A DNA stretch of 64,000 nt from positions 435,337 through 499,336 of the forward strand of contig CAVYHJ010000026.1 in NCBI GenBank assembly GCA_963768165.1, given 5' to 3'. The notes under the pieces are model-generated. The model did no database searches. It saw only the letters and a list, made by a program, of their open reading frames with translations, and was not told where the DNA came from. Made by a program: the position numbers and the translations under genes. This stretch comes from an uncultured bacterium (GTDB lineage Bacteria > UBP4 > UBA4092). Of this stretch, positions 27,381 to 49,044 are shown piece after piece; the stretch's first letter is position 1; each line of letters begins with the position of its first letter.

Positions 27381-30179
27381 TTACTTTTCCAATTCCATCA
27401 CTACCGGTATACACCGTTCGCACAATGTTGGATGAGCGGCATTCTCCCCTACCCGTTCACTATAATTCCAACACCGGTCGCATTTTTTGCCTAAGGCAAC
27501 AACCACGCCAATTTCCAGTCCTTCAATTTTATCACTTTTATGCGATGCCAAGGTGTCGGATGGAATATTTTCTACCAGACTTACCTGGGAAACAATGAAC
27601 AGTGCCGGGAAATCATTTATAAATTTCTTTAACAAGCCATTTTCCGCCGCATTGTTCCATAACAACAGAATTCGCGCATCCAAGGGATGTCCTATTTTCT
27701 TTTCTTTTCGCGCGAACTCCAATGCTTTGGTCACTTCCTCGCGCAAGATTAATAATATCTCCCATTCTTTTTCAATACTCTCATCCACCCATGCCGCGTT
27801 GACTTTGGGGAAATCCGCCAAATGGACACTGGATTCCGGTTGATGCAAATGCACCCAGATTTCATCCGATGTATAGGGCATTTGCGGAGCCATGAGTCTC
27901 GTCAATGTATTAGCGATTTCAAACATCACCGTTTGTCCGGCGCGTCTGCTGTTGGAATTCTTAGCAAAGGTATATAACCGATCTTTCAATATATCCAAAT
28001 ATATTGAACTCATGTCCACTACCAAAAAGTTGTATATCTTGGAATAGACCCGATGAAAATCGAATGCATCATACGCATCGGTACATTCCGAGATTAATCG
28101 CTGTAAGCGGTGTAATGCCCATTTATCAATCGGTAATAACTTTTCATAAGGTACGGTATTTTCCCCTGAATCAAAATCCGAAAGATTACCCAGTAAAAAC
28201 CGTGCCGTGTTTCTATATTTGAAATAGGCATCCGCGATGGGTTCAATAATCTTATCGGACAGGCGAACGTCAGTCGTAAAATCTACGGAGGAGAACCAGA
28301 GCCGTAACACATCAGCACCATATTTTTGAATTATCTGTTCCGGCGCGATAACATTCCCAATAGATTTGGACATCTTTTTTCCTTCGGCATCCAGTATCAA
28401 TCCATGCGTAGCGCAACTGCGATAAGGTGCCTTCTCTTCAAGCGCCACGGAGGGTAATAAGGAAACCTGAAACCAACCGCGATGTTGATCCCCTGCTTCT
28501 AAATATATGTCCGCAGGAAAACTTAAATCGTTTCTTTGCTGCAACACCGCTGACCAGCTACAACCGGAATCGAACCACACATCTAAAATGTCCTGTTCTT
28601 TTTTAAGTTCCGCATTACCGCACTTGGGACATTTGATTTCACCGGGAAATAATTGTGATAAGTCGGAAGAGAACCAGACATCCACGCCATGTTGCCGTAC
28701 TTGATTAAGTAATGAATCGTAGTGATCTAATGGCAGCCAACCGTGGTCGCATTTCGCGCAATACAAAGATGGAATCGGCACACCCCACGCGCGTTGACGT
28801 GAAACACACCAATCGGGACGACTACTCACCAAATTAAAAATCTTGTCATGTCCCCAGTCAGGAATCCATTTCACAGAATCAATTTGTTTCAAGGTACGTT
28901 GGCGCAAGTCTTTGTTATCCACATTTAAAAACCACTGGCGGGTCGCCCGGAATATCAACGGTTTCCTACAACGCCAACAATGGGGATACGAATGGGTTAA
29001 CTTATCGGAATGAAGTAGTGCACCTTTCTGTTTCAAAAATTCTACAATCAACGGGTTGGCTTTAAAGACATACTGTCCTTCCCATTGGCCTGCATCTTTG
29101 GTAAATATTCCTCTTTCATTAACGGGACAAAACGGTTCCAAACCATATTTCTGACCTACCACATAGTCATCCTGTCCATGACCGGGAGCGGTATGTACAC
29201 AACCCGTACCGGTATCCAATTTTACAAATTCCGCATTCATAATCAAGGAATCTTTGTCATTCAAAGGATTCACTGCTTTCAATTTCTCTAGCTTGGCACC
29301 TTTAAACGTCGCACCAATCTGATACTCTTTAATGTCGCAAGTCTTCATCACCTGCTCTACTAACTCTTTAGCAATAATCAGGTATTCTTCGCCCACATTG
29401 ACTATGGAATAATCAAAAGTCGGGTGAACAGTAATTCCTAAATTGGCAGGTAATGTCCAAGGAGTTGTTGTCCAAATAACAAGATAAACATGACCACCCC
29501 CAACCCTCTCCTTAATTAAGGCGGGGGGATTGAGGAGTTCAAACTTTACATAAATCGAAGGCGATTGATCCTCTTCGTATTCTAATTCTGCTTCTGCCAA
29601 TGCCGTCTGACATTCTGTGCACCATAATATTGGCTTTAACCCGTGATAGATATAATCTTCATTTGCCAATTTACCGAACACTTCCAGAATCTTCGCTTCA
29701 TATTCCGGATGCATGGTTAAATAGGAATTATCAAAATCGCCCAAAACTCCCAACCGTTGGAACTGTTCACTCTGCAATTTCTGATATTTAGTAGCATACT
29801 CCCGGCATAATTTGCGTAACTCGACTTGGGTGACTTCCATCTTCTTATTGCGCAATTGTTTTACAACTTGATGTTCAATAGGCATTCCGTGACAATCCCA
29901 ACCGGGGACATAAGGCGCATCAAATCCTTGCATGGTCTTATATTTCATGATCATATCTTTGAGAACTTTATTGAACGCCGTTCCCAAATGCACATCCCCA
30001 TTCGCATAGGGCGGACCGTCATGCAAGATATATTTCTTCGCTCCTTTACGCTTATCCCGTAAAAGATGGTACAACTTCATTTCCTGCCACTTCTTCAGCA
30101 TTACCGGTTCCCGCTGAGACAGATTGGCTTTCATGGGAAATTCCGTCTTTGGTAAATTTAATGTATTTTTATAATCCAT
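27381..30179 (-). CDS. ileS: Isoleucine--tRNA ligase
   Basis: HIGH-like motif (PYANGDVHLGTAFNK), KMSKS, a CP1 editing domain and a C-terminal zinc finger (CDRCWNY...CERC). 932 aa. Confidence 0.95.
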   Translation of the reverse strand: MDYKNTLNLPKTEFPMKANLSQREPVMLKKWQEMKLYHLLRDKRKGAKKYILHDGPPYANGDVHLGTAFNKVLKDMIMKYKTMQGFDAPYVPGWDCHGMPIEHQVVKQLRNKKMEVTQVELRKLCREYATKYQKLQSEQFQRLGVLGDFDNSYLTMHPEYEAKILEVFGKLANEDYIYHGLKPILWCTECQTALAEAELEYEEDQSPSIYVKFELLNPPALIKERVGGGHVYLVIWTTTPWTLPANLGITVHPTFDYSIVNVGEEYLIIAKELVEQVMKTCDIKEYQIGATFKGAKLEKLKAVNPLNDKDSLIMNAEFVKLDTGTGCVHTAPGHGQDDYVVGQKYGLEPFCPVNERGIFTKDAGQWEGQYVFKANPLIVEFLKQKGALLHSDKLTHSYPHCWRCRKPLIFRATRQWFLNVDNKDLRQRTLKQIDSVKWIPDWGHDKIFNLVSSRPDWCVSRQRAWGVPIPSLYCAKCDHGWLPLDHYDSLLNQVRQHGVDVWFSSDLSQLFPGEIKCPKCGNAELKKEQDILDVWFDSGCSWSAVLQQRNDLSFPADIYLEAGDQHRGWFQVSLLPSVALEEKAPYRSCATHGLILDAEGKKMSKSIGNVIAPEQIIQKYGADVLRLWFSSVDFTTDVRLSDKIIEPIADAYFKYRNTARFLLGNLSDFDSGENTVPYEKLLPIDKWALHRLQRLISECTDAYDAFDFHRVYSKIYNFLVVDMSSIYLDILKDRLYTFAKNSNSRRAGQTVMFEIANTLTRLMAPQMPYTSDEIWVHLHQPESSVHLADFPKVNAAWVDESIEKEWEILLILREEVTKALEFARKEKKIGHPLDARILLLWNNAAENGLLKKFINDFPALFIVSQVSLVENIPSDTLASHKSDKIEGLEIGVVVALGKKCDRCWNYSERVGENAAHPTLCERCIPVVMELEK

Positions 30180-30298
30180 AAGAACTCATAAACATAGGAT
30201 ATAGGAATTAGGAGATAGGAGTTAGGTAAAAAAACACCTTAATCTTAAATCCAGAAATGCTAAATTTCTCTTAATACGATAGCAAACTTAACAACATA

Positions 30299-30333
30299 GT
30301 TTCAAGTTTCAAGTTTCAGGTCTCAAGTTGGGA
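30299..30333. repeat. Tandem heptamer repeat (AGTTTCA AGTTTCA AGTTTCA GGTCTCA AGTTGGG)
   Basis: Read directly from the sequence. It is related to the AGTTTCTAG / AGTTCCTAG repeats at 34972, 36288 and 45365. Confidence 0.55.
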
Positions 30334-30388: not shown

Positions 30389-31564
30389 CTACTCGCTACG
30401 TCCGGAGGCCTTGCGGAGTTCTTCCATGTCCGTTTGGTCCACCGTGCGACCAAGCGTCTGACACTTTTTCGCGTCTGCCCAAGCCTTGTCGTAGTCCCCC
30501 TTGGTGATGTAAGCGCAGCAGCGGTACTTGTAGAGCAAGCCTTCTCTTGGATCCAACTCCATAGCCTTTGACCAATCTGCAATAGCCTTGTCGTAGTCCC
30601 TCTTGGCGTTGTAAGCAAGACCACGGTACTCGTAGGGGATAGAAAAATCTGGCCGCAACTCTATAACCTTTGACCAATCGGTAATCGCCTTGTCATAATC
30701 CTTTTTTCCGTAGTAAGAAAAGCCGCGATTATGGTAAGCATCATAATCATTCGGATCCAACTCGATGGCCTTAGAGCAATCGGCAATACCTTTTCCGAAA
30801 TCACCTTTCTCGTTAAAGGCTCTGCCCCGGTAGGAGTAAGCTTCGGCCAAAGTCGGGTCCAACTCGATAGCTTTTGAGCAGTCAGCAATAGCCTTGTCAT
30901 AATCGCGTATATCTGGTCTGAATGCTGTCTCCGCCTGCCAGAGATAAGTCATGGCCTCGCGCTGGAGGCGAATTGTAAAACCCCCAAACTGCCATCCGCC
31001 CGTTTCACCTTCTAGTCCGGCATCGGTCAGGCGGAGTTTCAGTGAACCTTCCGAACCCCTGAAGAACCAAAGGACATCACCTGTCGCAGCCCAATTTGAT
31101 CCTCCGGTTGGGCTCATCACAATAGGGTAGACTACATTACTATCCTTCTTTAGTTGAGAGTTGGAAACCAGTTCTCCTGTGAACGTTTGTTTCTCTTTAG
31201 GCTTATCAGGGCAGGTTACTTCTGCGCGAATCAGAACCCCCTTTTGTTCAGTGAAGACCAGATGAAGGCGACACCGCATGTCCCCCCTAGCGATTGTGCC
31301 GATATAACTTGTGCCCGGAACGGTTGCCAGACAAAGTTTCTGAAATGCCACCTTTTCTTCTGCTTTTCGCTGTTCCTGTTCTTTTCTTTGCTGCTCTTGA
31401 AACACTAGATTACTACTGGTCCCCTGTTGCGTACTGTAAGAAGTTTGAGAATGCTTGGAAACAGTAGATCGACCTAGTAACGAAATGATTCCCAAAACCA
31501 CGAGAACGAACCCTAACCGGTGCAGTACTTTAGCCAGGCCTACAGGTGGAATTTCCTGTGACAT
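30389..31564 (-). CDS. Membrane-anchored TPR-repeat protein (N-terminal TM, an unknown beta-rich domain, then at least 5 TPR units)
   Basis: Repeated TPR units (AIADCSKAIELDP..., AITDWSKVIELRP..., AIADWSKAMELDP...). GC content is visibly higher than in the flanking genes. Confidence 0.6.
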   Translation of the reverse strand: MSQEIPPVGLAKVLHRLGFVLVVLGIISLLGRSTVSKHSQTSYSTQQGTSSNLVFQEQQRKEQEQRKAEEKVAFQKLCLATVPGTSYIGTIARGDMRCRLHLVFTEQKGVLIRAEVTCPDKPKEKQTFTGELVSNSQLKKDSNVVYPIVMSPTGGSNWAATGDVLWFFRGSEGSLKLRLTDAGLEGETGGWQFGGFTIRLQREAMTYLWQAETAFRPDIRDYDKAIADCSKAIELDPTLAEAYSYRGRAFNEKGDFGKGIADCSKAIELDPNDYDAYHNRGFSYYGKKDYDKAITDWSKVIELRPDFSIPYEYRGLAYNAKRDYDKAIADWSKAMELDPREGLLYKYRCCAYITKGDYDKAWADAKKCQTLGRTVDQTDMEELRKASGRSE

Positions 31565-31582
31565 AGACGATGTCTCCTATCA

Positions 31583-32419
31583 TTAGCGATTCAATATCTT
31601 CAAGATGGCCTCGATTGTTCCTGCGGACAAGTTCCCTCTCAACTCATTGATCTTCTTTTGGATATCGCCACGATTAAGTTGAACAATCTCGAGAGACGCT
31701 TCTGGTGACAAGCCCAACTCCTCGAGTTCTTTGGTTCGCTCTTTGAGCGCGGTCATTTTCACCTTTTCTGCAATCATCTTGCTTGTTTCTGTAACACTCA
31801 ATTCAGCAGCACGTGCGAGACCACCTAGAGGTTTTATAGTACCGATGTTCAAGCGATTGAGTATTATCCCTAGGGATGGAATGAGCTGCGTACCATTGCC
31901 CGACCGAATTCTTCCAATAAGTTGATTTTCGTCATCCGCAGAAATCTGCGCAGGCAAACCGGCAATATCTCGAATAACAGCGACTGTCGCTTCGTCCTTT
32001 GCTGACAGAATATCACCCCAAGTATTACCGGGCGACCGTGCCCATTCCCGCAAACGTTGACTGATAAGGTCCTCTAAGACTTTTCGTACTCCCTCTTCAC
32101 CTCCATTGTTCAGATATTCGATAGCGTAATCTTCGCTTGGAGTCCAAGTTGTTGCCACAGTAACTTCCAACTCTGCGTTATCATGTGCCCTTACACTCTG
32201 AGGAGACAAGTCCTGATGAACTTTGGTTATGTTAATAGGAATTGCACCGAAAACGACTGGATAAAAAGGGAACAACCTATAGCCTTCTCTCTTGATTTGC
32301 CTCGTTCGCTTTCCGAAGAAAGTTACAACAGCAACCTGTGGAGGGTCGGCAGGAATTCGACGTAGTGAGGTCGCAAGGAAAACAAGGACGAAACCAATCA
32401 AAATAATAATCCATTCCAT
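31583..32419 (-). CDS. SPFH/band-7 (stomatin/prohibitin-like) domain membrane protein
   Basis: N-terminal TM (MEWIIILIGFVLVFL), an SPFH-like core (QVAVVTFFGKRTRQIKREGYRLFPFYPVV...) and a C-terminal coiled-coil. Confidence 0.6.
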   Translation of the reverse strand: MEWIIILIGFVLVFLATSLRRIPADPPQVAVVTFFGKRTRQIKREGYRLFPFYPVVFGAIPINITKVHQDLSPQSVRAHDNAELEVTVATTWTPSEDYAIEYLNNGGEEGVRKVLEDLISQRLREWARSPGNTWGDILSAKDEATVAVIRDIAGLPAQISADDENQLIGRIRSGNGTQLIPSLGIILNRLNIGTIKPLGGLARAAELSVTETSKMIAEKVKMTALKERTKELEELGLSPEASLEIVQLNRGDIQKKINELRGNLSAGTIEAILKILNR

Positions 32420-32423
32420 ATGT

Positions 32424-32618
32424 CTATCCCTCCATCAATGACACTATCGAAGAACCACCCAGCAAAGCTATTATATAATCCACACTGTATGAACTACCCC
32501 AAGTCGAGTCACCTTTTTTTGAACAACCTAACAGATAAACAATAACGCCGCTCAAAAACACAGATGCAATTATTACAACTAAAACAGTCGCACATGATTT
32601 CTTTGATGACACATTCAT
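32424..32618 (-). CDS. Small (64 aa) membrane protein or lipoprotein, possibly the first gene of the SPFH-TPR operon
   Basis: Hydrophobic segment VLVVIIASVFLSGVIVYLLGC. It ends 4 nt before the SPFH gene start. Confidence 0.3.
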   Translation of the reverse strand: MNVSSKKSCATVLVVIIASVFLSGVIVYLLGCSKKGDSTWGSSYSVDYIIALLGGSSIVSLMEG

Positions 32619-33023
32619 TTCTGCACTCCCGTTCTGAAAACTAGATTTACAATATTAAGAATGATTTGCACATAACTTATCGAAATATTTCAAACGCACT
32701 AATATTAGTATTCCATTTGCATCTTTGTCAAGTACAAGAAAGACTGGATTCCCGGTCCGATAAAAAGAATCAGGACTCAAAAGGATACTTTCGCGGGAAT
32801 GACGGGATGGGGAAGAAAAGCGAGATCACCACGCTTCACTCGTGACGACAAGATGCTGGATTTTCTATCACAGTTGAGAATGACTCGAAGGAAAGGTTAA
32901 CAAGAGGAAGCTAATGGGACTACTGGTCGGAAAGTCGATAATGTTTCTATTGACTCATTCTTAGAGATAATGTACCATATATAAGTTAGGTTGATAATAA
33001 AATATAATAGAAAGGAGGCAAGC

Positions 33024-33500
33024 ATGGTAACAAGTAGATATCGGAGGCCGGGGAATAAGGTGCCAGAGGTGTATCGAGGGAAGGCGCTGGAGGAGCGGAT
33101 TCGGAGGGCTTTGGAGAGTATGTATTCGTCGGATAAAAAAACGGTAGGGACGAAGGACGTACGGCGGTTCTTAAGGGGATTTTCAGAACCGGGGATAGGA
33201 GTGGAGTTGGTATTGATTGTGGAGAAAAGTCCATTGAATTCAGTGTGGGCGCGGGGAAGATGCGGGGATAAGATATATTCGTACATAGGGAAAACGGGTA
33301 CTCAGTATGTGAAAGAGTATAAGAAACCGCGTAATCCCCGAACAATTGCTCAGCAAGAACAGAGGATGAAGTATAAGGAAGCGGTGGGGATGTGGAGAGT
33401 ATTGCCGGAGAGTGAGAAAGAGGTTTATCGCCAGAAGGCGGTAAATTTGCCAATGACGGGGTATAACCTGTTTATAAGAAGTTATTTGAAAACAACTTAA
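33024..33500 (+). CDS. Hypothetical basic protein (158 aa) with strongly purine-skewed codon usage
   Basis: SD GAAAGGAGG 7 nt before the ATG at 33024. The coding strand is very G+A rich, unlike the rest of the window. The ORF-track start at 32991 seems a less likely extension. Confidence 0.5.
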   Translation: MVTSRYRRPGNKVPEVYRGKALEERIRRALESMYSSDKKTVGTKDVRRFLRGFSEPGIGVELVLIVEKSPLNSVWARGRCGDKIYSYIGKTGTQYVKEYKKPRNPRTIAQQEQRMKYKEAVGMWRVLPESEKEVYRQKAVNLPMTGYNLFIRSYLKTT

Positions 33501-33592
33501 TTACTCCGATATGCACGATTATATTGGTTATAGTAAGTGAAGTTGCCAGAGTGATAACGAGAGATTCTTCACCCTAAAGAGCAGGGTTCAGA

Positions 33593-34645
33593 ATGGGATT
33601 AATAGTAAAAAGGTATTGCTGGGAATGTATACCGATCCATAACTGGTGCGGTATTATCGGTAGTATTTATGAGAGCGGTTATAAATGGAGGTACGATGCG
33701 TTTAAAAAACACTGTCCCCAATGTGATTCTGCGCAGGTTAAAAAGAATGGAAGAAGTCGTCATGGGAAGCAAAGATGGCTGTGTAAAAGATGTGGTACGA
33801 CGTATGGATGGAAGAATGTCGCGAGTAAGTTCCTTCGACAAAAGATATGGTTTAAACGCTGGATTATCGAAGGATATACGCTACGGCAATTATCCGCGCA
33901 GAGTGGTCATAGTCGCTATTATGTACGGCAGACGGTGCGGTATTGGTTGGAGCGGGCTCCGGTAGAAAGCCTATCCGTTTCAGAATGTCGGTATGTCTTA
34001 CTGGATGGAACGTTTTTGGAAAATCGCCGGGGTCTGTTGAGTGTCATGCACGCTCCGGAGTATAGAGTCTTTTATAGTGCCTATGGTCTGAGCGAAGGCC
34101 TCCGGGATGTAACCCGATTTTGTACATTTCTGCGGGATCAGGGACTTTGTCCGATTAGCGCGACCATTGATGGGAACCCGCATTTGACAAGGGTTTTAAA
34201 GACTCTTTGGCCACAGATCTTCATTCAACGTTGTTTGGTTCATGTGCAACGTCAAGGATTGAGTTGGTGTCGTCGGAATCCCAAGAGAACCGATGCCAAA
34301 CATCTTCGGCAGATTTTTCTCCAAGTGATGTCCATTCGTTCTTTGCAACAAAAAGAGGATTTCCCGGGTCAGATTCAACAATGGGAAGAACGCTTTGGTC
34401 AAGCCATCCATCAAGCCCCGGAATCCGGCTGGGTCTTTAGTGATCTTAAACGGGCACGGAGTATGTTGCTTTCCGCTCTGCCGAATATGTTCTATTATTT
34501 TCAAGACCCTCTCATCCCAACCTCCACGAATGCGTTGGAAGGATATTATTCTCGTCTCAAGCAAAGATATCGGCAACATCGAGGACTCGCAAAGCGTTTC
34601 CGAAAGACCTATTTCCAATGGTATACTTATTTATGTCCCAAGTAA
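33593..34645 (+). CDS. Putative DDE transposase with an N-terminal zinc-ribbon (IS1/IS1595-like; family not resolved)
   Basis: N-terminal CPQCDS...KKNGRSRHGKQRWLCKRCGTTY zinc-ribbon resembling IS1 InsA or the IS1595 Zn_Tnp domain. Candidate D-D-E residues are LLDGTF, TIDGNP and NALEGYYSRLKQRYRQHR (E with a downstream K/R). It shares the purine-rich composition of the preceding gene. Confidence 0.55.
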   Translation: MGLIVKRYCWECIPIHNWCGIIGSIYESGYKWRYDAFKKHCPQCDSAQVKKNGRSRHGKQRWLCKRCGTTYGWKNVASKFLRQKIWFKRWIIEGYTLRQLSAQSGHSRYYVRQTVRYWLERAPVESLSVSECRYVLLDGTFLENRRGLLSVMHAPEYRVFYSAYGLSEGLRDVTRFCTFLRDQGLCPISATIDGNPHLTRVLKTLWPQIFIQRCLVHVQRQGLSWCRRNPKRTDAKHLRQIFLQVMSIRSLQQKEDFPGQIQQWEERFGQAIHQAPESGWVFSDLKRARSMLLSALPNMFYYFQDPLIPTSTNALEGYYSRLKQRYRQHRGLAKRFRKTYFQWYTYLCPK

Positions 34646-34971
34646 TCTTTGAAAAACATTTTTTCTATCTAATTAGCAATACCTTTTTGCTATTAATCCC
34701 AGAATGACAGAGTAGAGCGAGATTGCTTTGGTTGTAAAGAACACTCCCTCGCAATGACAAAAAGGGAGTAGGACAAGTTGTAATTTACCCACCTTTTTTA
34801 ACGTATTTTTTCCATTTTTATAGCAAGCCTGGATAAGAGTTGCTTTTTTCAATTCTTATCTAACTCCGTACTATCTCCGTATTGTCTTCGTACTTGCTCC
34901 GTTTCAGGTTCGTTGGTTATCCAGTATTGGTTTGGAATTCATTCGAGTGTTATCCGGGGACAATAACAAAA

Positions 34972-35003
34972 CAGTTCCGAGTTTCTAGTTTCTAGTTCCT
35001 AGT
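34972..35003. repeat. Tandem heptamer repeat (GTTCCGAG TTTCTAG TTTCTAG TTCCTAG TT)
   Basis: Read directly from the sequence. Same family as the repeats at 36288-36328 and 45365-45397 (reverse complement). Confidence 0.6.
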
Positions 35004-35270
35004 TAAAAGAAGAAAAGAAATTACTCCCCTTTTTCCTCAATTGAGAACGAATTATCTCAATTGATTTATTTATGATAATATAAAGGAAAATGTTAAATGG
35101 TTAAATAAAGGAAGGCGTCGGGAAAGAAAAGAGCTCATTCCCGACGCAGATAAACGCTCAAGTTCCCGATGCATCTTCAAATGGGCTAAAGCCCAACGAA
35201 CCGTACACTAAAGTGTCGTAGAAGGTGAAGCCCTCGACTAAAGTCGGGTAGAACACGAAGATTCAAAACG

Positions 35271-36284
35271 ATGGTAATACAACCCAAGAAAATCACATTG
35301 TTAGGCACAGGGAGTTGGGGATTGGCGTTGGGGAGGTTATTGGCCAATAAAGGATTCCCCATTACTATGTGGGATAAGGACACTCCCGCTCTGGAGATTC
35401 TGCGCAAGACTCACAAACATCCCAAATTATTGCCCTGGCTTACCCTACCCGATTCGATAAGCATAGTAGATGAAGTCCGAGAAGCTGTCGAAAATGCCGA
35501 TTTTATTATTCTGACCGTACCGTCTCATGCCGTGAGACCTGTCACGTTAGAAATCTCCCGTTTCATTCCCCCAAATGCCATTATCGTGAATTGTGCCAAA
35601 GGGTTGGAACCGGATTCCATGAAGACGATGACGGAAGTCTTGAAAGACACCTTGGTGATGACTCCTGGTGACAATATCACCGTCCTGTCCGGACCCAGTC
35701 ATGCGGAGGAAGTCAGTAAAGATTTGCCGACAACGGTGACGGTCAGCGGAAGTGGCAAGGAAAATTTAGTCAAGGTGCAGGAATTATTCATGTCTCCCCG
35801 GTTTCGCGTTTATACCAATACAGACTTAATCGGTGTGGAAATGGGGGGTGCGTTAAAAAATGTCATCGCGATCGCTGCCGGTGCCTGTGACGGCATGGGG
35901 TTTGGCGATAATACCAAAGCGGCGCTCATCACGCGAGGGTTGGCAGAAATGATGCGATTAGGAGTCAAACGCGGCGCTCATCCGGCGACTTTCTCCGGCT
36001 TGGCCGGATTGGGTGATTTGGTAGTGACCTGCGCCAGCCGGCATTCCCGGAATCGGAAATTCGGTGAACTCCTTGCTCAAGGGTACACTGCCGATAAAGC
36101 TTTGGAAGAAATCGGTATGGTGGTGGAAGGCGTAAAAACTACGGAAGCCGCTTATAAACTGGCAAAAAAATATGCAGTGGAAATGCCCATTACCCAGGAA
36201 GTCTATTCCGCGCTCTACCAAAATAAATCTCCTCAGCAGGCCGTTTTGGATTTAATGACCCGTGACCCGAAAGCGGAAATATAA
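35271..36284 (+). CDS. gpsA: NAD(P)H-dependent glycerol-3-phosphate dehydrogenase
   Basis: ITLLGTGSWGLALGRLLANKG Rossmann motif and typical GpsA length with conserved core (GLEPDS, NTDLIGVE). Confidence 0.9.
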   Translation: MVIQPKKITLLGTGSWGLALGRLLANKGFPITMWDKDTPALEILRKTHKHPKLLPWLTLPDSISIVDEVREAVENADFIILTVPSHAVRPVTLEISRFIPPNAIIVNCAKGLEPDSMKTMTEVLKDTLVMTPGDNITVLSGPSHAEEVSKDLPTTVTVSGSGKENLVKVQELFMSPRFRVYTNTDLIGVEMGGALKNVIAIAAGACDGMGFGDNTKAALITRGLAEMMRLGVKRGAHPATFSGLAGLGDLVVTCASRHSRNRKFGELLAQGYTADKALEEIGMVVEGVKTTEAAYKLAKKYAVEMPITQEVYSALYQNKSPQQAVLDLMTRDPKAEI

Positions 36285-36287
36285 AAA

Positions 36288-36328
36288 AAGTTTCTGGTTC
36301 CGAGTTCCTAGTTTCTAGTTCCTCGATT
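36288..36328. repeat. Tandem heptamer repeat (AAGTTTCTGGTTCCGAGTTCCTAGTTTCTAGTTCCTCGATT)
   Basis: Same AGTTYCTAG family. It lies between the convergent gpsA and ugd genes. Confidence 0.6.
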
Positions 36329-39475: not shown

Positions 39476-40315
39476 TTACTTGATTAGCATTCCCGCGTAA
39501 CCATTAACCTGGGAATAATCTCCGGTGACATCGCCGCTAGTTACATATTTTACCAATTCAGCACTGGACGCCCCTAATTCTTTCGCCGCTAATAACAGGG
39601 TCATTACTCCATTCATCCCACAATACGACAATCCAAATCGTTTAATCCCCTTGGTTAATTCTTCTGTCTCCAGGTGTGCGATATCATTAATTACTTTTTG
39701 ATCCTTCCGGTTGGCCATTTCCTGAGTCAAATCCTGGGATAAATCGCTTGTCGCCACTATCACTACTCTTCGATCAAATGAATGAATAGAACGCACAATC
39801 GCCTTGCTTAATTCTTCACACAACGCAATATTGATACGGGTGGGCAATAATATGGGAATTATCTTGAAACTTTTTCTTGCAAAATATTGCATGACCGGTA
39901 ATTGTACTTCAATGGAATGTTCCTTTTCATGAGGATGCGGGTCATCGGACATATTTTTCATAGACGCTTTAATGTCCTGCACCAGTCGTTGATTAATCTC
40001 CAAATCTCCCAAGGGTGTTTTCCATATCCCGCGTGGAAAAATAGCTGCTTGCCCGGTTTTTTGCGTATGTATGGGGCCAAGAATGATAAAATCATCCGGG
40101 GTTTCAACTTTTCGATACGTTTCCACGAGAACTTTCCCACACCAGTCGTATCCCGCATGAGGAGTCAATACGCCCATGACCGGTTCGGGAAAAACTTTGG
40201 AAACGGGAGACAACTGTTGAATTAATTCACGTATCTTTTCCGCAGATCCCGGATAGAAATGTCCCGCTACAACCGGATGACGAATAATCATTTCAGAAAC
40301 ACTGCTTTCTTCCAT
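39476..40315 (-). CDS. MEMO1-family protein (AmmeMemoRadiSam system protein B homolog)
   Basis: N-terminal IRHPVVAGHFYPGSAEKIRELI (Memo AGxFYP motif) and a LTPHAGYDW His motif. Confidence 0.7.
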   Translation of the reverse strand: MEESSVSEMIIRHPVVAGHFYPGSAEKIRELIQQLSPVSKVFPEPVMGVLTPHAGYDWCGKVLVETYRKVETPDDFIILGPIHTQKTGQAAIFPRGIWKTPLGDLEINQRLVQDIKASMKNMSDDPHPHEKEHSIEVQLPVMQYFARKSFKIIPILLPTRINIALCEELSKAIVRSIHSFDRRVVIVATSDLSQDLTQEMANRKDQKVINDIAHLETEELTKGIKRFGLSYCGMNGVMTLLLAAKELGASSAELVKYVTSGDVTGDYSQVNGYAGMLIK

Positions 40316-40395
40316 AAAAATAGATTTCAGATTTAAGGTTTCAGTTTTTTCCTGAACGCTGGAACCTGTTTTCTTACATTTTTACTTACATTATA

Positions 40396-44581: not shown

Positions 44582-45364
44582 ATGAATCCCGTCAAATATT
44601 TTTCGAAAAAAAATAGCTCTCTCCAAAATAAAGGAGAAGATCACCGGTCGAATATATCTGAGTTCCGTGTTCTCGAGAACAGCGAGAGCATAAATCTTAA
44701 ATCTAAAATATGCATTCTCCTATTTTCTGTTTTTGTGTTTACAATAGCAACCTTCGCCTTTTCTTCACAACCAGAGACTATAAACGAGAAACCAGAAACT
44801 GTTAAATACGACCTTGCTTTACAACGGGATATCTATCGCTATACCAATTACACCGGTTCTCGGGCTCTTTCCAAATTAATCCTGTTGGATGTCCAGGACA
44901 GTCGGTCATCGCAAGAAAAAAATGGCGGATTACTCCAAGACCAAACTACCGACAAGGATTGGAAAAGACCTCTCCCCATTATGCTTTCCGACTTATTTAC
45001 CACCGAAATGCAACGCGCCAGTCTCATTAAATTAATTCCAGCAACATCCGATAATCTGGACTATCGTCTTACCTTAAAAATTATCTCCCTGTATGCTGGA
45101 ACAAAAGAAAATAGCTCAAACTCCGGGATCAAACATTGGTTTGCACCCCGCATCGCCCACGGTTACGCTGATCTCCAAATCATCCTCTCCGATAAATCCG
45201 GTAAGGAAATCTCCAATACCGATTTTATCGCCAATGCTCAGCAGGAACTCGGTCGATTCTCCAATAACCACCTTGCTGCCGTTAAAGTCCTCGGTCTGGC
45301 TCTCCGCGAGTCCATCGCTTCTTTCCTACAAGACTTGGATTCCCGTCTCCAATTACCCAAATAA
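44582..45364 (+). CDS. Hypothetical membrane/secreted protein (260 aa)
   Basis: N-terminal hydrophobic segment ICILLFSVFVFTIATFAFS. No recognisable domain. Confidence 0.4.
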   Translation: MNPVKYFSKKNSSLQNKGEDHRSNISEFRVLENSESINLKSKICILLFSVFVFTIATFAFSSQPETINEKPETVKYDLALQRDIYRYTNYTGSRALSKLILLDVQDSRSSQEKNGGLLQDQTTDKDWKRPLPIMLSDLFTTEMQRASLIKLIPATSDNLDYRLTLKIISLYAGTKENSSNSGIKHWFAPRIAHGYADLQIILSDKSGKEISNTDFIANAQQELGRFSNNHLAAVKVLGLALRESIASFLQDLDSRLQLPK

Positions 45365-45397
45365 TTAACTAGGAACTAGAAACTAGGAACTTGGGAC
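45365..45397. repeat. Tandem heptamer repeat, reverse orientation (TTAACTAGGAACTAGAAACTAGGAACTTGGGAC)
   Basis: Reverse complement of the GTTCCTAGTTTCTAGTTCCTAG family. Confidence 0.6.
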
Positions 45398-47886
45398 TAT
45401 ATAATATCGGCATGAGTCGTCCTGTAGTTGTTTTTACTTTATGTTATATATTGGGAATTTTGCTTACGAGTTTTTTCCAAATTTCCACAGGTCTTCTTTT
45501 CTCGATTCTTTTCATAATTATTTGCATTTCTATCTTGATTCATTCCTATGCAAAGAAAATTAATTCTGTTCTATTAATCCTTTCATTTATTGTATTGGGA
45601 TTATTTCGCACCGCACAAGTGGGAGAAATATCTACCCACCAATTATTGGGAATGGAACAATACTCCAACGAACATGAATTTGTGTTCACCGGTCGTATCG
45701 TGGGTAATCCATTTTTATCATCACAACAAATTTCTTACATCGTTGACCATATAGCGATTCAAACGTCCAATGGGTTTGAACCGGTCAGTGGGAAATTATT
45801 GGTTAATCTTAAAAACAACGTATCCAATCAATATTTTTTATATAATGACCCCATTTTCGCCATGGGACAAATTCAAATTCCTCCCCTCCCTAGAAATCCT
45901 GGAGGATTTAATTACCGCGAATATCTGGTACGGCATGGAATTTACGGAATCGTCTATCTTAAAACCAATCGGATTTTTCTCGATACAAATATGCCTGAAT
46001 CGAACTTTGCTCATATCCTGAATCTGATTCCTCATTGTGGTTCAGAGATTCGTTATGAAATTGTTACAATAAACAATAAACTCATTCCAACTCCTTTCGC
46101 TGCTCTTGCCAACGGTATTTTTCTCGGTCTCCAATCCGATATACCCGATGAGATAAAGGATATTTATCGTAAAGCAGGGATATATCATCTGCTGGTTGTG
46201 AGCGGAGGACATGTATGGATGATGGGACTATTGGCTTTCGTCCTATTTCGCTCATTTTGTTTTAAACGTCGCTCCTCTGCAATCTTCACGATTCCCATCA
46301 TTCTATTCTACGGCTTCATCGCGGGATTCTCTCCACCGGTAACCCGTGCCGTTATTATGGCAGTCATCATATTATTGGGTTTAATTCTCCGTCGGGATAC
46401 CCAAGTCATTAACAGCCTCTCTCTTGCGGCCTGCATCATTTTACTTTTAAATCCCTACGAACTTTTTGATTCCAGTTTTCAATTTTCCTATCTGGCAGTG
46501 TTAGGAATTGCGACTCTAAGCCCGATACTGGAATCCATTTATCCCTTGAGAAGACCGCAAATTCTCATGAGGATTATCTACTGCACCCTGAGCGCTTTTA
46601 TTACTCTGATACCATTAATGGCAAAATACTTCAACCTTATACCCGTTTATTCGATGTTAACAAATATCGTGAACGCCCCATTAATTTCAATTTCTTTGCC
46701 CGCCTCTTTCTTAACAGGAATATCGTATCCCCTCTCACCCAATCTCGCTCAATTTATTGCCAATACCAATTGGCTTATCTTACGAGTCCTAACTAAAACC
46801 ACGGAATATATCGTCAATTCATCCGGTGCTTATATTATTGTTCCCAGTTGGCCTTTATGGCGAATATTGGTATATTACTTTTTTCTTCTTTGCTTTATCT
46901 ACGCTTTTAATCCCTTACAAGATCCTCCCGATTACCGTTTTCGGAAACACTGGCTCTATGCCGTTATGGTCTATTGTATTTTGTGGATTTTCATTCCTGT
47001 ATCATGGAATCACCATTCGGAACTCAAGGTCACATTTTTGGATGTAGATCAGGGAGATTGTATTGTCCTGGAATTTCCCAACGGAAAATCTGCACTGGTT
47101 GACGGTGGAGGTCGGGAACCGCTGGATCATGGCAAACGGGATATTCTCCCCTATTTATTTTCACACGGGATTACTCATGTTGACATGATAGTATTTACCC
47201 ATCCCGACAGTGACCATGCTGGAGGGTTGATTAGTGTTCTCGAAAGAGTCCCCGTTAATTTGGTTTTAGTAAACGGTTGGCCGGAAGCGAAAGAAAAACA
47301 ATATCTCCACGCCCTGAGCCTTGTCCAATCAAAAAATATTCCTTGCCAGATTGTTCATCGCGGACAAGAAATTCCCGATTTTGAACCCTGTCGAATTGAA
47401 GTTCTCAATCCACCTGAGTCCTTTCTCACTGGAACACCAGCGGACGATAATAATAACGGAATCGTGTTACGAGTCTCCTACGGCGATTATCAATTTCTCT
47501 TAACCGCTGATATCCAATCCGAAGCAGAACTAGATATGTTGAATGCCAACGTCCCACTAAATTCCACGATATTAAAAGTTGGACATCACGGGTCGAAAGC
47601 ATCCAGCACAGAGGCCTTTTTGGAGAAGGTCCATCCGTTGTTTGCTGTTATACAAGTTGGCAAACATAACCATTTCGGTCATCCCTCCCCACAAACACTG
47701 AACCGCTTAAATCAATTTCATATTCAAATCTACCGCAACGACCAAGACGGTGCAATAATTGCGAAGACAGATGGGAAAGTTTTACAGACTACTTCCATGG
47801 AAAAAGAATATGCTAATGCAAGGTCCGATATAACTGCAGAACCCGACTATGAATCTATTATTTCTCCAGATGAAGCTATACAATAA
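45391..47886 (+). CDS. comEC: DNA internalization competence protein ComEC/Rec2 with a C-terminal metallo-beta-lactamase domain
   Basis: A multi-TM competence domain and an MBL motif (FTHPDSDHAGG, KVGHHGS). The start is more likely the ATG at 45412, because 45391 overlaps the repeat. Confidence 0.85.
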   Translation: MGLYNIGMSRPVVVFTLCYILGILLTSFFQISTGLLFSILFIIICISILIHSYAKKINSVLLILSFIVLGLFRTAQVGEISTHQLLGMEQYSNEHEFVFTGRIVGNPFLSSQQISYIVDHIAIQTSNGFEPVSGKLLVNLKNNVSNQYFLYNDPIFAMGQIQIPPLPRNPGGFNYREYLVRHGIYGIVYLKTNRIFLDTNMPESNFAHILNLIPHCGSEIRYEIVTINNKLIPTPFAALANGIFLGLQSDIPDEIKDIYRKAGIYHLLVVSGGHVWMMGLLAFVLFRSFCFKRRSSAIFTIPIILFYGFIAGFSPPVTRAVIMAVIILLGLILRRDTQVINSLSLAACIILLLNPYELFDSSFQFSYLAVLGIATLSPILESIYPLRRPQILMRIIYCTLSAFITLIPLMAKYFNLIPVYSMLTNIVNAPLISISLPASFLTGISYPLSPNLAQFIANTNWLILRVLTKTTEYIVNSSGAYIIVPSWPLWRILVYYFFLLCFIYAFNPLQDPPDYRFRKHWLYAVMVYCILWIFIPVSWNHHSELKVTFLDVDQGDCIVLEFPNGKSALVDGGGREPLDHGKRDILPYLFSHGITHVDMIVFTHPDSDHAGGLISVLERVPVNLVLVNGWPEAKEKQYLHALSLVQSKNIPCQIVHRGQEIPDFEPCRIEVLNPPESFLTGTPADDNNNGIVLRVSYGDYQFLLTADIQSEAELDMLNANVPLNSTILKVGHHGSKASSTEAFLEKVHPLFAVIQVGKHNHFGHPSPQTLNRLNQFHIQIYRNDQDGAIIAKTDGKVLQTTSMEKEYANARSDITAEPDYESIISPDEAIQ

Positions 47887-48672: not shown

Positions 48673-49044
48673 GAGATCTTGACGTTATAAATTAGAAATT
48701 CATGGCATCCCCCATAAATTTTGGTTATCATTCATAAAATTAATTTTACGAAACCTGTAACACTTATTGAGGATTTTTCGGCAAATGCCGAAATTTCAGG
48801 TCATTGATTTTATTGGAGATAAATTATTAACATTTGTTAATAATTATTTCATCATTCCCATGAAATGGTAGGCGTATCAAAATAATACACGAGACGAACC
48901 AGTCCATATTTTGTCCGGTGTTCGAGCGGAATTGAAAATAACAATTCCGCTTGGAAGCCATATATAGGATGGATGAGGTGATGTTATTTGACATGGTTTG
49001 GGGATGGGTGATACCCTAGTAAGATTAACCTTTTGAGGAGATTT

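Follow-up and report, generated by a model that had tools for sequence, protein, structure and literature searches.

Insertion sequences (ISs) of the IS256 family transpose by a copy-out-paste-in route via a circle and usually duplicate 8-9 bp of their target (ISfinder). Within this family, members of the IS1249 group (e.g. IS1249 of Corynebacterium) are about 1.1-1.3 kb long, are present in multiple copies per genome, end in terminal inverted repeats of ~26 nt starting with GG, and carry a single open reading frame (ORF) that encodes a four-cysteine zinc ribbon and a Mutator/IS256-type DDE domain. Phage 'morons' and similar autonomous single-gene units possess their own promoter, ribosome-binding site and terminator region, differ in composition from both neighbours, and are found in varied neighbourhoods across genomes. 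Rho utilization (rut) sites, which lie downstream of genes, are recognized by RhoTermPredict through an excess of C over G and cytosines spaced every 11-13 nt (PMC6407284), and short tandem repeats with the heptamer TAACTGA are known in Beggiatoaceae, Cyanobacteria and Bacteroidetes (PMC4679880). In this study, we analysed the stretch between ileS and gpsA in 64 kb of DNA from an uncultured bacterium (this whole piece of DNA is referred to below as the window), and compared an IS, a 158-codon gene termed ORF158, and the repeat arrays found there with these described systems.

Between ileS and gpsA lie a TPR gene, an SPFH gene and a 64-aa ORF (s64) on the minus strand, and ORF158 and a 350-aa ORF on the plus strand (Table 1). 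Searches of Pfam and NCBIfam identified the TPR, SPFH and zinc-ribbon DDE transposase genes, and returned no match for ORF158 or the 64-aa ORF. Gene-free DNA amounts to 405 nt between the 64-aa ORF and ORF158 and to 625 nt 3' of the transposase ORF. An earlier note on this DNA had described the stretch as a compositionally mosaic island of about 4.3 kb with heptamer tandem repeats at its borders. We consider it probable that the stretch is instead a junction of three unrelated units, and not one repeat-bounded island, and that the gene order there differs from that of the nearest known relatives. The first unit would be a minus-strand gene run (small membrane protein, SPFH/Band-7 protein, TPR protein) co-oriented with ileS-lspA-lgt. 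The second would be a self-contained one-gene module made of a promoter, a strong Shine-Dalgarno (SD) sequence, ORF158, a hairpin and five YYCGYW hexamers. The third would be a recently active IS256-family (IS1249-like) IS that landed in the 3' untranslated part of this module, in the same orientation, and so moved ORF158 and its array 1.1 kb apart. In kind the stretch is ordinary, namely an IS insertion beside compositionally atypical genes, plus one unusual gene-plus-array module; resolving the supposed island into its real parts is useful for annotation.

Table 1. Features in and around the stretch between ileS and gpsA (positions are those of the window).
Feature	Position	Strand	Basis or remark
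ileS	27381-30179	minus	
Heptamer array, ATAGGAG x4.7	30194-30226		TRF; 15-47 nt upstream of ileS start codon
Heptamer array, AGTTTCA x4.6	30298-30329		TRF; between TPR stop and ileS
TPR-repeat protein, 391 aa	30389-31564	minus	Pfam TPR_1 1.3e-32
Divergent SPFH/Band-7 protein, 278 aa	31583-32419	minus	PF01145 3.8e-9
s64, 64-aa hydrophobic protein, first gene of run	32424-32618	minus	4-nt gap to SPFH gene
Sigma-70-like promoter upstream of s64, TTGACA-18-TAATAT	32702-32731	minus	10/12; consensus match only
ORF158 promoter, sigma-70-like, TTGACT-17-TACCAT	32950-32978	plus	Consensus match
AGGAGG ribosome-binding site	33013-33018	plus	5 nt before ORF158 ATG
ORF158, 158 aa, conserved basic protein (pI 10.2)	33024-33500	plus	Homologs, profile, AlphaFold2 model
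Target-site duplication, left copy AGAAT	33590-33594		GAA if IS starts at 33594
Transposase ORF, 350 aa as called	33593-34645	plus	Pfam and NCBIfam
IS256-family (IS1249-like) IS, 1106-1108 bp	33595-34700	plus	Terminal inverted repeats
Terminal inverted repeats	33595-33620 and 34675-34700		25/26 identical
Target-site duplication, right copy AGAAT	34701-34705		
Hairpin, 13 bp, directly before array	34830-34862	plus	Position as hairpins after homologs in L005, L010, L011
Array of five YYCGYW hexamers, exact 11-nt spacing	34865-34914	plus	Profile and pattern search
Heptamer array, AGTTTCT x3.6	34980-35004		TRF; same repeat family as arrays at 30298 and 36289
gpsA	35271-36284	plus	
Further heptamer arrays	36289-36323, 40322-40348, 44769-44799, 45367-45399		

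An IS1249-like insertion sequence

The inverted repeat of the element may also be read as 27 nt (96% complementary, 33594-33620 and 34675-34701), and it is the sole such pair in the window. The flanking duplication has a length of 5 bp (AGAAT); counting the terminal T/A pair as part of the repeat shortens it to 3 bp (GAA), a form slightly favoured by the T that both IS copies carry as second base of their junction codons. The other copy, P0010, is located on the same 990-kb contig. Its product is identical to the transposase of the window from 'GLIVKRY' on, and is preceded by eleven different N-terminal residues that come from its own flank. This comparison therefore fixes the left IS end at 33594/33595 and indicates that at least two copies exist. 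A search for terminal inverted repeats and target-site duplications, proposed in the earlier note, thus yielded both (26-27 nt and 3-5 bp, AGAAT/GAA). The inverted repeats, the duplicated target and the existence of a second copy together prove, on anatomical grounds, that one acquisition took place. Moreover, because the IS ends at 33594/5 and 34700/1, the purine-rich ORF158 is outside the element, and the IS insertion is an event separate from it. The analysis thus supplies precise ends for an IS1249-like element that is new and apparently active, in a bacterial lineage that branches deeply and is poorly sampled.

The second plus-strand gene had been said to resemble a zinc-ribbon DDE transposase, and this was borne out by the Pfam and NCBIfam matches. 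The zinc ribbon (CPQC...CKRC) spans transposase residues 41-67, with CPQC at 41 and CKRC at 64, and the presumed DDE triad, assigned by motif, consists of D138 (LLDGT), D193 (IDGNP) and E316 (NALEG). The transposase matched PF00872 with 26.2 bits (gathering score 21) and the IS256 transposase model NF033543 with an E-value of 2.2e-11. Zinc-binding domain models were matched above their cutoffs, at 43.4 bits against 27 for NF048018, 42.1 against 28 for NF050000, and 30.2 against 26.1 for PF03811. The IS1249 model NF033544 was matched at 5.8e-38 but with 131 bits against a curated cutoff of 300, and the IS256 Zn-variant model NF048019 at 2.2e-29 but with 102.7 bits against a curated cutoff of 150. 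Because these scores lie below the NCBIfam curated cutoffs, the transposase is a distant new member of the IS1249 group. The element has in common with that group its single ORF with both domains, its ~26-nt repeats starting with GG, its size and its multiple copies. It differs in the low identity to annotated IS1249-family transposases on plasmids (24-32%), in the sub-cutoff scores, in the 3-5-bp duplication, and in a frame that is open through the left end and is without a canonical internal start.

With respect to this frame, no ATG, GTG or TTG occurs inside the element before the zinc ribbon, and the called ATG (33593) is made of target bases. A computed junction of the right and left ends (34640-34700 and 33593-33720) with 0, 3 or 6 nt between them lengthens the frame by at least 50 codons into the right end and brings in-frame TTG and ATG codons into it. 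As a lead only, the full transposase gene may exist solely on a circle or tandem junction, or may be read by flanking transcription. By analogy with its family, the IS presumably moved by copy-out-paste-in through a circle, and the site before insertion would have read ...GGGTTCAGAATGACAGAG... The IS lies downstream of the ORF158 promoter and in the same orientation.

The ORF158 gene and its hexamer array

A word-indexed search recovered eight ORF158 homologs with 46-100% identity, seven of them exactly 158 aa long. When an exhaustive profile search was carried out, 3921 cluster representatives matched, mainly over the C-terminal ~85 residues. The family motif is NPRTxxQ...R...W..L...EK..Y...A...SGYNLF, and the domain that is C-terminal in ORF158 is usually N-terminal in family proteins of 140-160 aa. 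All family proteins are named 'hypothetical' at source, and several come from metagenome-assembled genomes (MAGs) of Spirochaetota. At the nucleotide level, similarity to homolog loci begins at ~32941, at the ORF158 promoter, and includes ATATAAGTTAGGTT common to locus L005; GGAGG or AGGAGG was present in all homologs checked (L001, L005, L011, and L064). The AlphaFold2 model, based on a 70-sequence alignment, had a predicted local distance difference test score (pLDDT) of 89.9, and neither PDB nor BFVD yielded a significant structural neighbour of the model. Homologs, profile matches and model together show ORF158 to be a real gene. It was also asked of these data whether the purine-rich segment might be non-coding, either as a structured or regulatory RNA or with the true gene on the opposite strand, as antisense ORFs of 155 aa and 129 aa (32986-33453 and 32897-33286) and the lack of a Pfam or NCBIfam match for ORF158 could suggest. 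However, the sense protein is conserved at constant length, also in homologs without the nucleotide bias; the model is confident and the strong SD sequence conserved; the antisense frame is broken in homologs and was not significant under synonymous permutation; and Rfam gave no RNA family at the gathering threshold or even at E up to 1. The non-coding or antisense reading is already contradicted, and we regard it as extremely improbable.

The array downstream of ORF158 consists of the units TCCGTA, TCCGTA, TTCGTA, TCCGTT, and TTCGTT. A profile of the 3' flanking sequences of the L005, L010, and L011 homologs found its best window match at 34861-34921(+) with an E-value of 3.4e-4, and the triple-hexamer pattern was found nowhere else in the 64 kb and in 0 of 100 shuffles. 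The pattern was also searched, with no more than one mismatch, in the window and 69 fetched loci, a total of 1.07 Mb when both strands are counted. Matches clustered 56-67 nt 3' of the homolog stop codons in L005 (array at 669-718), L010 (622-660), and L011 (1133-1193); the association covers the window and these three loci, the four other homolog contigs ending 10-74 nt past the stop codon. The genes next to the homologs vary by locus and include glyoxalase-like, GlcF-like, HicA-like, and surface-protein genes. Because the array is kept while the neighbours differ, ORF158 and the array appear to travel together as a unit of ~0.7-0.9 kb. In the window, ORF158 is split from its array by the IS. 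The gene-plus-array combination is thus a conserved module in a family with thousands of uncharacterised members.

Like a phage moron, the ORF158 module has its own promoter, ribosome-binding site and terminator region, differs in composition from both neighbours, and occurs in varied neighbourhoods across genomes. It differs from morons in that it is chromosomal and not part of a prophage, no relative was found in IMG/VR, and no integration machinery or flanking repeats were found at the module. A phage origin of ORF158 was considered and is unsupported, given that searches of PHROGs and IMG/VR both came back empty for it.

With regard to the role of the array, its C content, spacing and structure agree with the operational rut definition. 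The ratio of C to G in the best 78-nt window was 1.5-3.6 over the four loci and 1.8 in the window, the cytosines are regularly spaced, and the array was predicted to be unpaired in the centroid fold. Like rut sites, it lies downstream of a gene; it differs in being a strict repeat of a conserved hexamer over ~50-70 nt, whereas a rut site is a degenerate 78-nt C-rich tract (PMC6407284). By this analogy we infer that the array is the terminator region of the module and rut-like. A different explanation, which we regard as rather doubtful, is that a protein with sequence specificity, perhaps encoded by ORF158 itself, binds the array as DNA, and that the array does not act in RNA-level Rho loading. 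The period of exactly 11 bp corresponds to one helical turn, which would set the sites on one face of the DNA helix and fits a binding array equally well, the hexamer with its CG core is conserved in four loci, and the array moves with the ORF158 gene while the neighbours change. In addition, the ORF158 product is small and basic, and shares the motif W..L...EK..Y...A with eukaryotic-type HMG boxes (PF00505, PF09011). The similarity to HMG boxes is weak but recurrent (TFAM, E 0.0014; hhalign probability, 69%), and 20 of 70 family members matched PF00505 and 10 of 70 matched PF09011, at best with 1.9e-5. However, ORF158 itself scored 14 bits against a cutoff of 51.6 with HMG_WDHD1 (E 0.049), and hhalign places HMG helix I onto predicted beta strands of ORF158. 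Its predicted fold had no significant match to HMG boxes and did not show their L-shaped three-helix arrangement, and a position downstream of the gene is unusual for autoregulation. DUF6266 (PF19781) showed weak sequence similarity to 6 of 70 family members; ORF158 itself fell below every curated cutoff, that of DUF6266 included. Because of the position and strand of the array, a terminator is rated slightly higher than a binding array, both readings being drawn from sequence.

Several observations were made at other loci of this family. In L011, a HicA-like toxin ORF (123-347) lies directly upstream of the ORF158 homolog, and because of this adjacent ORF the L011 copy appears to be in a toxin-antitoxin or mobile-type neighbourhood. 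Distant members with the ORF158 domain in candidate-phylum (Saccharibacteria-type) loci (L007, L027-L031, and L042-L047) have a conserved neighbourhood of PLD-like nuclease, BNR/sortilin-type, LamG, methyltransferase-glycosyltransferase, tail-fibre-like, and lytic transglycosylase genes, which does not reach the 158-aa subfamily. Family member P0163 has a tail-fibre-like C-terminus. Elsewhere in the window, the hairpin CGGAATTGAAAATAACAATTCCG at 48920-48949 closely resembles those that follow the ORF158 homologs in L005 (~648-680) and L010 (~590-620), whose form is CGGAATTAAAA.TTT.AATTCCG; these hairpins may belong to a shared family of palindromic elements.

Composition and codon usage of the stretch

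Composition was measured against the 64-kb window as background and, at the gene level, against its 51 ORFs of at least 100 aa. In 400-nt windows, both GC skew (0.49; mean 0.00, standard deviation 0.14) and purine fraction (0.68; mean 0.505, standard deviation 0.05) reached their maxima for the whole window at ~32850-33500. ORF158 was the extreme of the 51 ORFs, with a GC skew of +0.47 and G and C fractions at third codon positions (G3 and C3) of ~0.48 and ~0.05, and it also had the lowest synonymous-codon likelihood (-1.29 per codon; mean -1.09, standard deviation 0.063). The TPR and SPFH genes came next in codon atypicality, at -1.26 each, ~2.7 standard deviations below the mean. The earlier note had assigned an extreme G+A skew to both plus-strand genes; this holds for ORF158, whereas the transposase gene is host-like overall (GC skew +0.13, purine fraction 0.52, codon likelihood -1.12). 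Only the N-terminal third of the transposase gene is G-rich, and the excess is largest at second codon positions (G2 0.35), so that it mostly reflects amino-acid composition and less codon choice. The purine skew accordingly belongs to one gene, ORF158, and not to two.

The TPR and SPFH genes were confirmed to be GC-richer (0.49 and 0.46, respectively; gene mean 0.419, standard deviation 0.034). Their codon deviation consists of more AAG (0.57-0.61, compared with 0.21 in core genes), more GAG, more CTC (0.19, compared with 0.08), and much less TTA (0.03-0.06, compared with 0.28); of the GCC, CTC, and AAG codons named for them previously, GCC was not enriched. The two changes in sequence character noted earlier between ileS and gpsA are real in sliding-window and codon statistics, but gpsA, with a GC content of 0.49, is as GC-rich as the TPR gene. 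These combined data support the presence of at least three compositional classes side by side in the stretch.

The codon bias of ORF158 is directed toward G-ending codons. Its third positions are G 0.49, A 0.26, T 0.21, and C 0.04, and the ratio of GAG to GAA is 10:3, compared with 25:117 in core genes. The same bias was found in the homologs of L064 (68% identical; G3 0.45, C3 0.07) and L005 (54% identical; G3 0.47, C3 0.09); the L010 and L011 homologs show it mildly, and L001 and all distant members lack it. Across unrelated assemblies, the bias is thus tied to a gene sub-lineage, which makes it one of the rare instances in which codon bias goes with the gene lineage and not with the host. 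Its presence in homologs 54-68% identical argues against a simple, recent, un-ameliorated import, and because it follows the gene sub-lineage, a single recent import with amelioration would not be expected either; a thermophile or Firmicutes donor is conceivable.

Candidate causes of the bias were examined in turn. A conserved antisense ORF was rejected, as the three biased homologs contain 1, 4, and 9 stop codons in the antisense frame concerned, and synonymous permutation gave P 0.07. Selection for unstructured mRNA found no backing in a minimum free energy of -128.9 kcal/mol for 477 nt (z = +0.66 versus GC-matched host segments), and no canonical G-quadruplex motif is present in ORF158. A regional skew of the physical strand in the window was set aside, given that s64, encoded on the opposite strand, likewise has a G-rich coding strand (GC skew +0.43, C3 0.06, a strong depletion of C, although in a small sample of 64 codons).

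It is conceivable, if on balance unlikely, that the G-ending, C-avoiding usage is kept by selection or a gene-specific process, such as a constraint imposed by the transcript or by the non-template DNA strand, and is not a relic of a foreign donor. The bias holds across 54-68% protein identity in three separate assemblies, the skew spans the 5' and 3' untranslated parts of the ORF158 unit as well, and the density of GGG runs in ORF158 is the highest in the window. The convergent neighbour of the L005 homolog shows the opposite coding-strand bias (C3 0.39, G3 0.12). However, both L005 genes are then G-rich on the same physical strand, which could equally reflect a regional strand bias; the mechanisms tested (antisense ORF, low mRNA structure, and G-quadruplex) were unsupported; and more distant 158-aa members do not have the bias. 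If true, selection would open a way to study a constraint at the nucleotide level for which standard codon-usage models have no explanation. We consider it improbable that ORF158 and the array, as a small basic protein with an HMG-box-like motif and its cis-acting array, form an autonomous, horizontally wandering two-part module of an undescribed kind whose codon bias is actively maintained over deep divergence for a module-linked reason; in that event, the bias might be kept, for example, for strand-specific recognition or transcription-linked behaviour.

Gene order, borders and repeats

The closest IleRS proteins from other organisms were 70% and 68% identical, and the next tier, from MAGs labelled Nitrospirota, Desulfobacterota and similar, was ~52% identical; this drop indicates that the lineage is poorly sampled. 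In both 68-70% relatives, the order ileS-lspA-lgt-helicase is conserved and grpE-dnaJ lies upstream of ileS, whereas no grpE or dnaJ was found in the window. The TPR, SPFH, ORF158, transposase, and gpsA genes were absent within 10 kb in both relatives. The idea of ileS and gpsA as conserved neighbours, on which the earlier note had based its synteny check, therefore failed, the two genes not being adjacent in these relatives. With a different gene order on either side, there is no locus that could be called empty, and from these comparisons the site looks like a synteny breakpoint at large evolutionary distance with no demonstrable hotspot. Two Logan contigs (L008 and L009) are from the same strain (99.98-100% identity); one ends at 31877 and the other starts at 35121.

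The alternative of a single ~4.3-kb island at a hotspot between two core genes, with at least two transfers, heptamer borders, and ORF158 and the transposase imported together from a thermophile or Firmicutes donor, was weighed against these data. Three codon-usage classes are adjacent in the stretch, with ORF158, TPR, and SPFH the three most atypical ORFs, as the composition of a classical island would have it. In addition, a mobile element is present, heptamer arrays lie near both ends, and gene order upstream of ileS differs from that of the relatives. However, the IS ends leave out ORF158, the transposase gene is compositionally host-like, and the heptamers are spread over the window. The integration marks of a classical island were not found: there was no integrase among the window ORFs, no tRNA or tmRNA in the window, and no convincing flanking direct repeat. 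Furthermore, gpsA is not beside ileS in relatives, which leaves no defined 'empty' locus; homologs 54-68% identical in unrelated contigs show the same codon bias as ORF158; and no relative was found in IMG/VR. The borders and the co-transfer are already contradicted, and a single island is unlikely. Of the at least two horizontal acquisitions at one hotspot that had been proposed, one, that of the IS, stands, and the hotspot could not be demonstrated. PADLOC assigned none of the TPR, SPFH, s64, ORF158, and transposase genes to a defence system.

Our preferred reading is still that three unrelated units meet in the stretch, and several points weigh against it. The target duplication is only 3-5 bp and of ambiguous exact length. 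The synteny comparison is limited to relatives of at most 70% IleRS identity plus the same strain, and the association of gene and array to four loci, that of the window included. None of the causes tested accounts for the G-ending bias, which leaves gene-specific selection or transfer from a purine-loading donor clade or element that has not been sampled. Whereas rut sites in nature tend to be degenerate, the hexamers here repeat strictly every 11 nt at several loci, and this may speak for a sequence-specific binder and not for a terminator.

For the minus-strand run s64-SPFH-TPR, gene identities were clear for the two longer genes. The TPR protein has an N-terminal membrane anchor, a middle region without family assignment and C-terminal TPRs; the SPFH domain exceeded the Pfam gathering score (PF01145, 37.3 bits versus 23.6). 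The exact sequence of s64 is present in a protein collection. The atypical codon usage of the run is consistent with an older acquisition, without being proof of it; on codon usage, then, we infer a horizontal origin for the TPR and SPFH genes, and the ORF158 module may likewise have arrived horizontally. Between the ORF158 promoter and the promoter of the s64 operon, a terminator-like hairpin with a T-run was seen on the minus strand (32825-32849), and promoter-like sites were found on the minus strand at 33001-33033; transcription there may give rise to a short divergent or antisense RNA.

Heptamer arrays do exist near both ends of the stretch, as had been reported; they do not mark its edges, and belong to a repeat family dispersed over the window. 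Tandem Repeats Finder (TRF) listed ten period-7 rows across the window, and period 7 was the only enriched period (4 strict arrays compared with 0 in shuffles). The units are AGTTTCA, AGTTTCT, AGTTCCT, ATAGGAG, AGATTTC, AACCAGA, and AACTAGG, among which AGTTTCA, AGTTTCT, and AGTTCCT and its complement are related. The heptamers are thus a dispersed intergenic repeat family that is unrelated to the borders of the stretch. Several arrays, including those at 30194-30226, 40322-40348 and 45367-45399, immediately precede start codons; ileS and a gene that begins at 40315 are examples of the genes so preceded. Like the cyanobacterial STRR and TAACTGA repeats (PMC4679880), the arrays hold 3-5 heptamer copies, are intergenic, and in several cases precede start codons; they differ in unit sequence, and their host is from an unrelated, poorly sampled lineage. 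Such arrays upstream of start codons add one lineage to the few known carriers of these repeats.

Two minor observations concern the arrays. On the ileS sense strand, CTCCTAT-like units stand before the ATG, and no GGAGG-type ribosome-binding site is present there. An ORF at 44582-45364 holds two heptamer arrays and has an inverted composition (GC skew -0.24, C3 0.32); it may be a mis-called frame or non-coding DNA.

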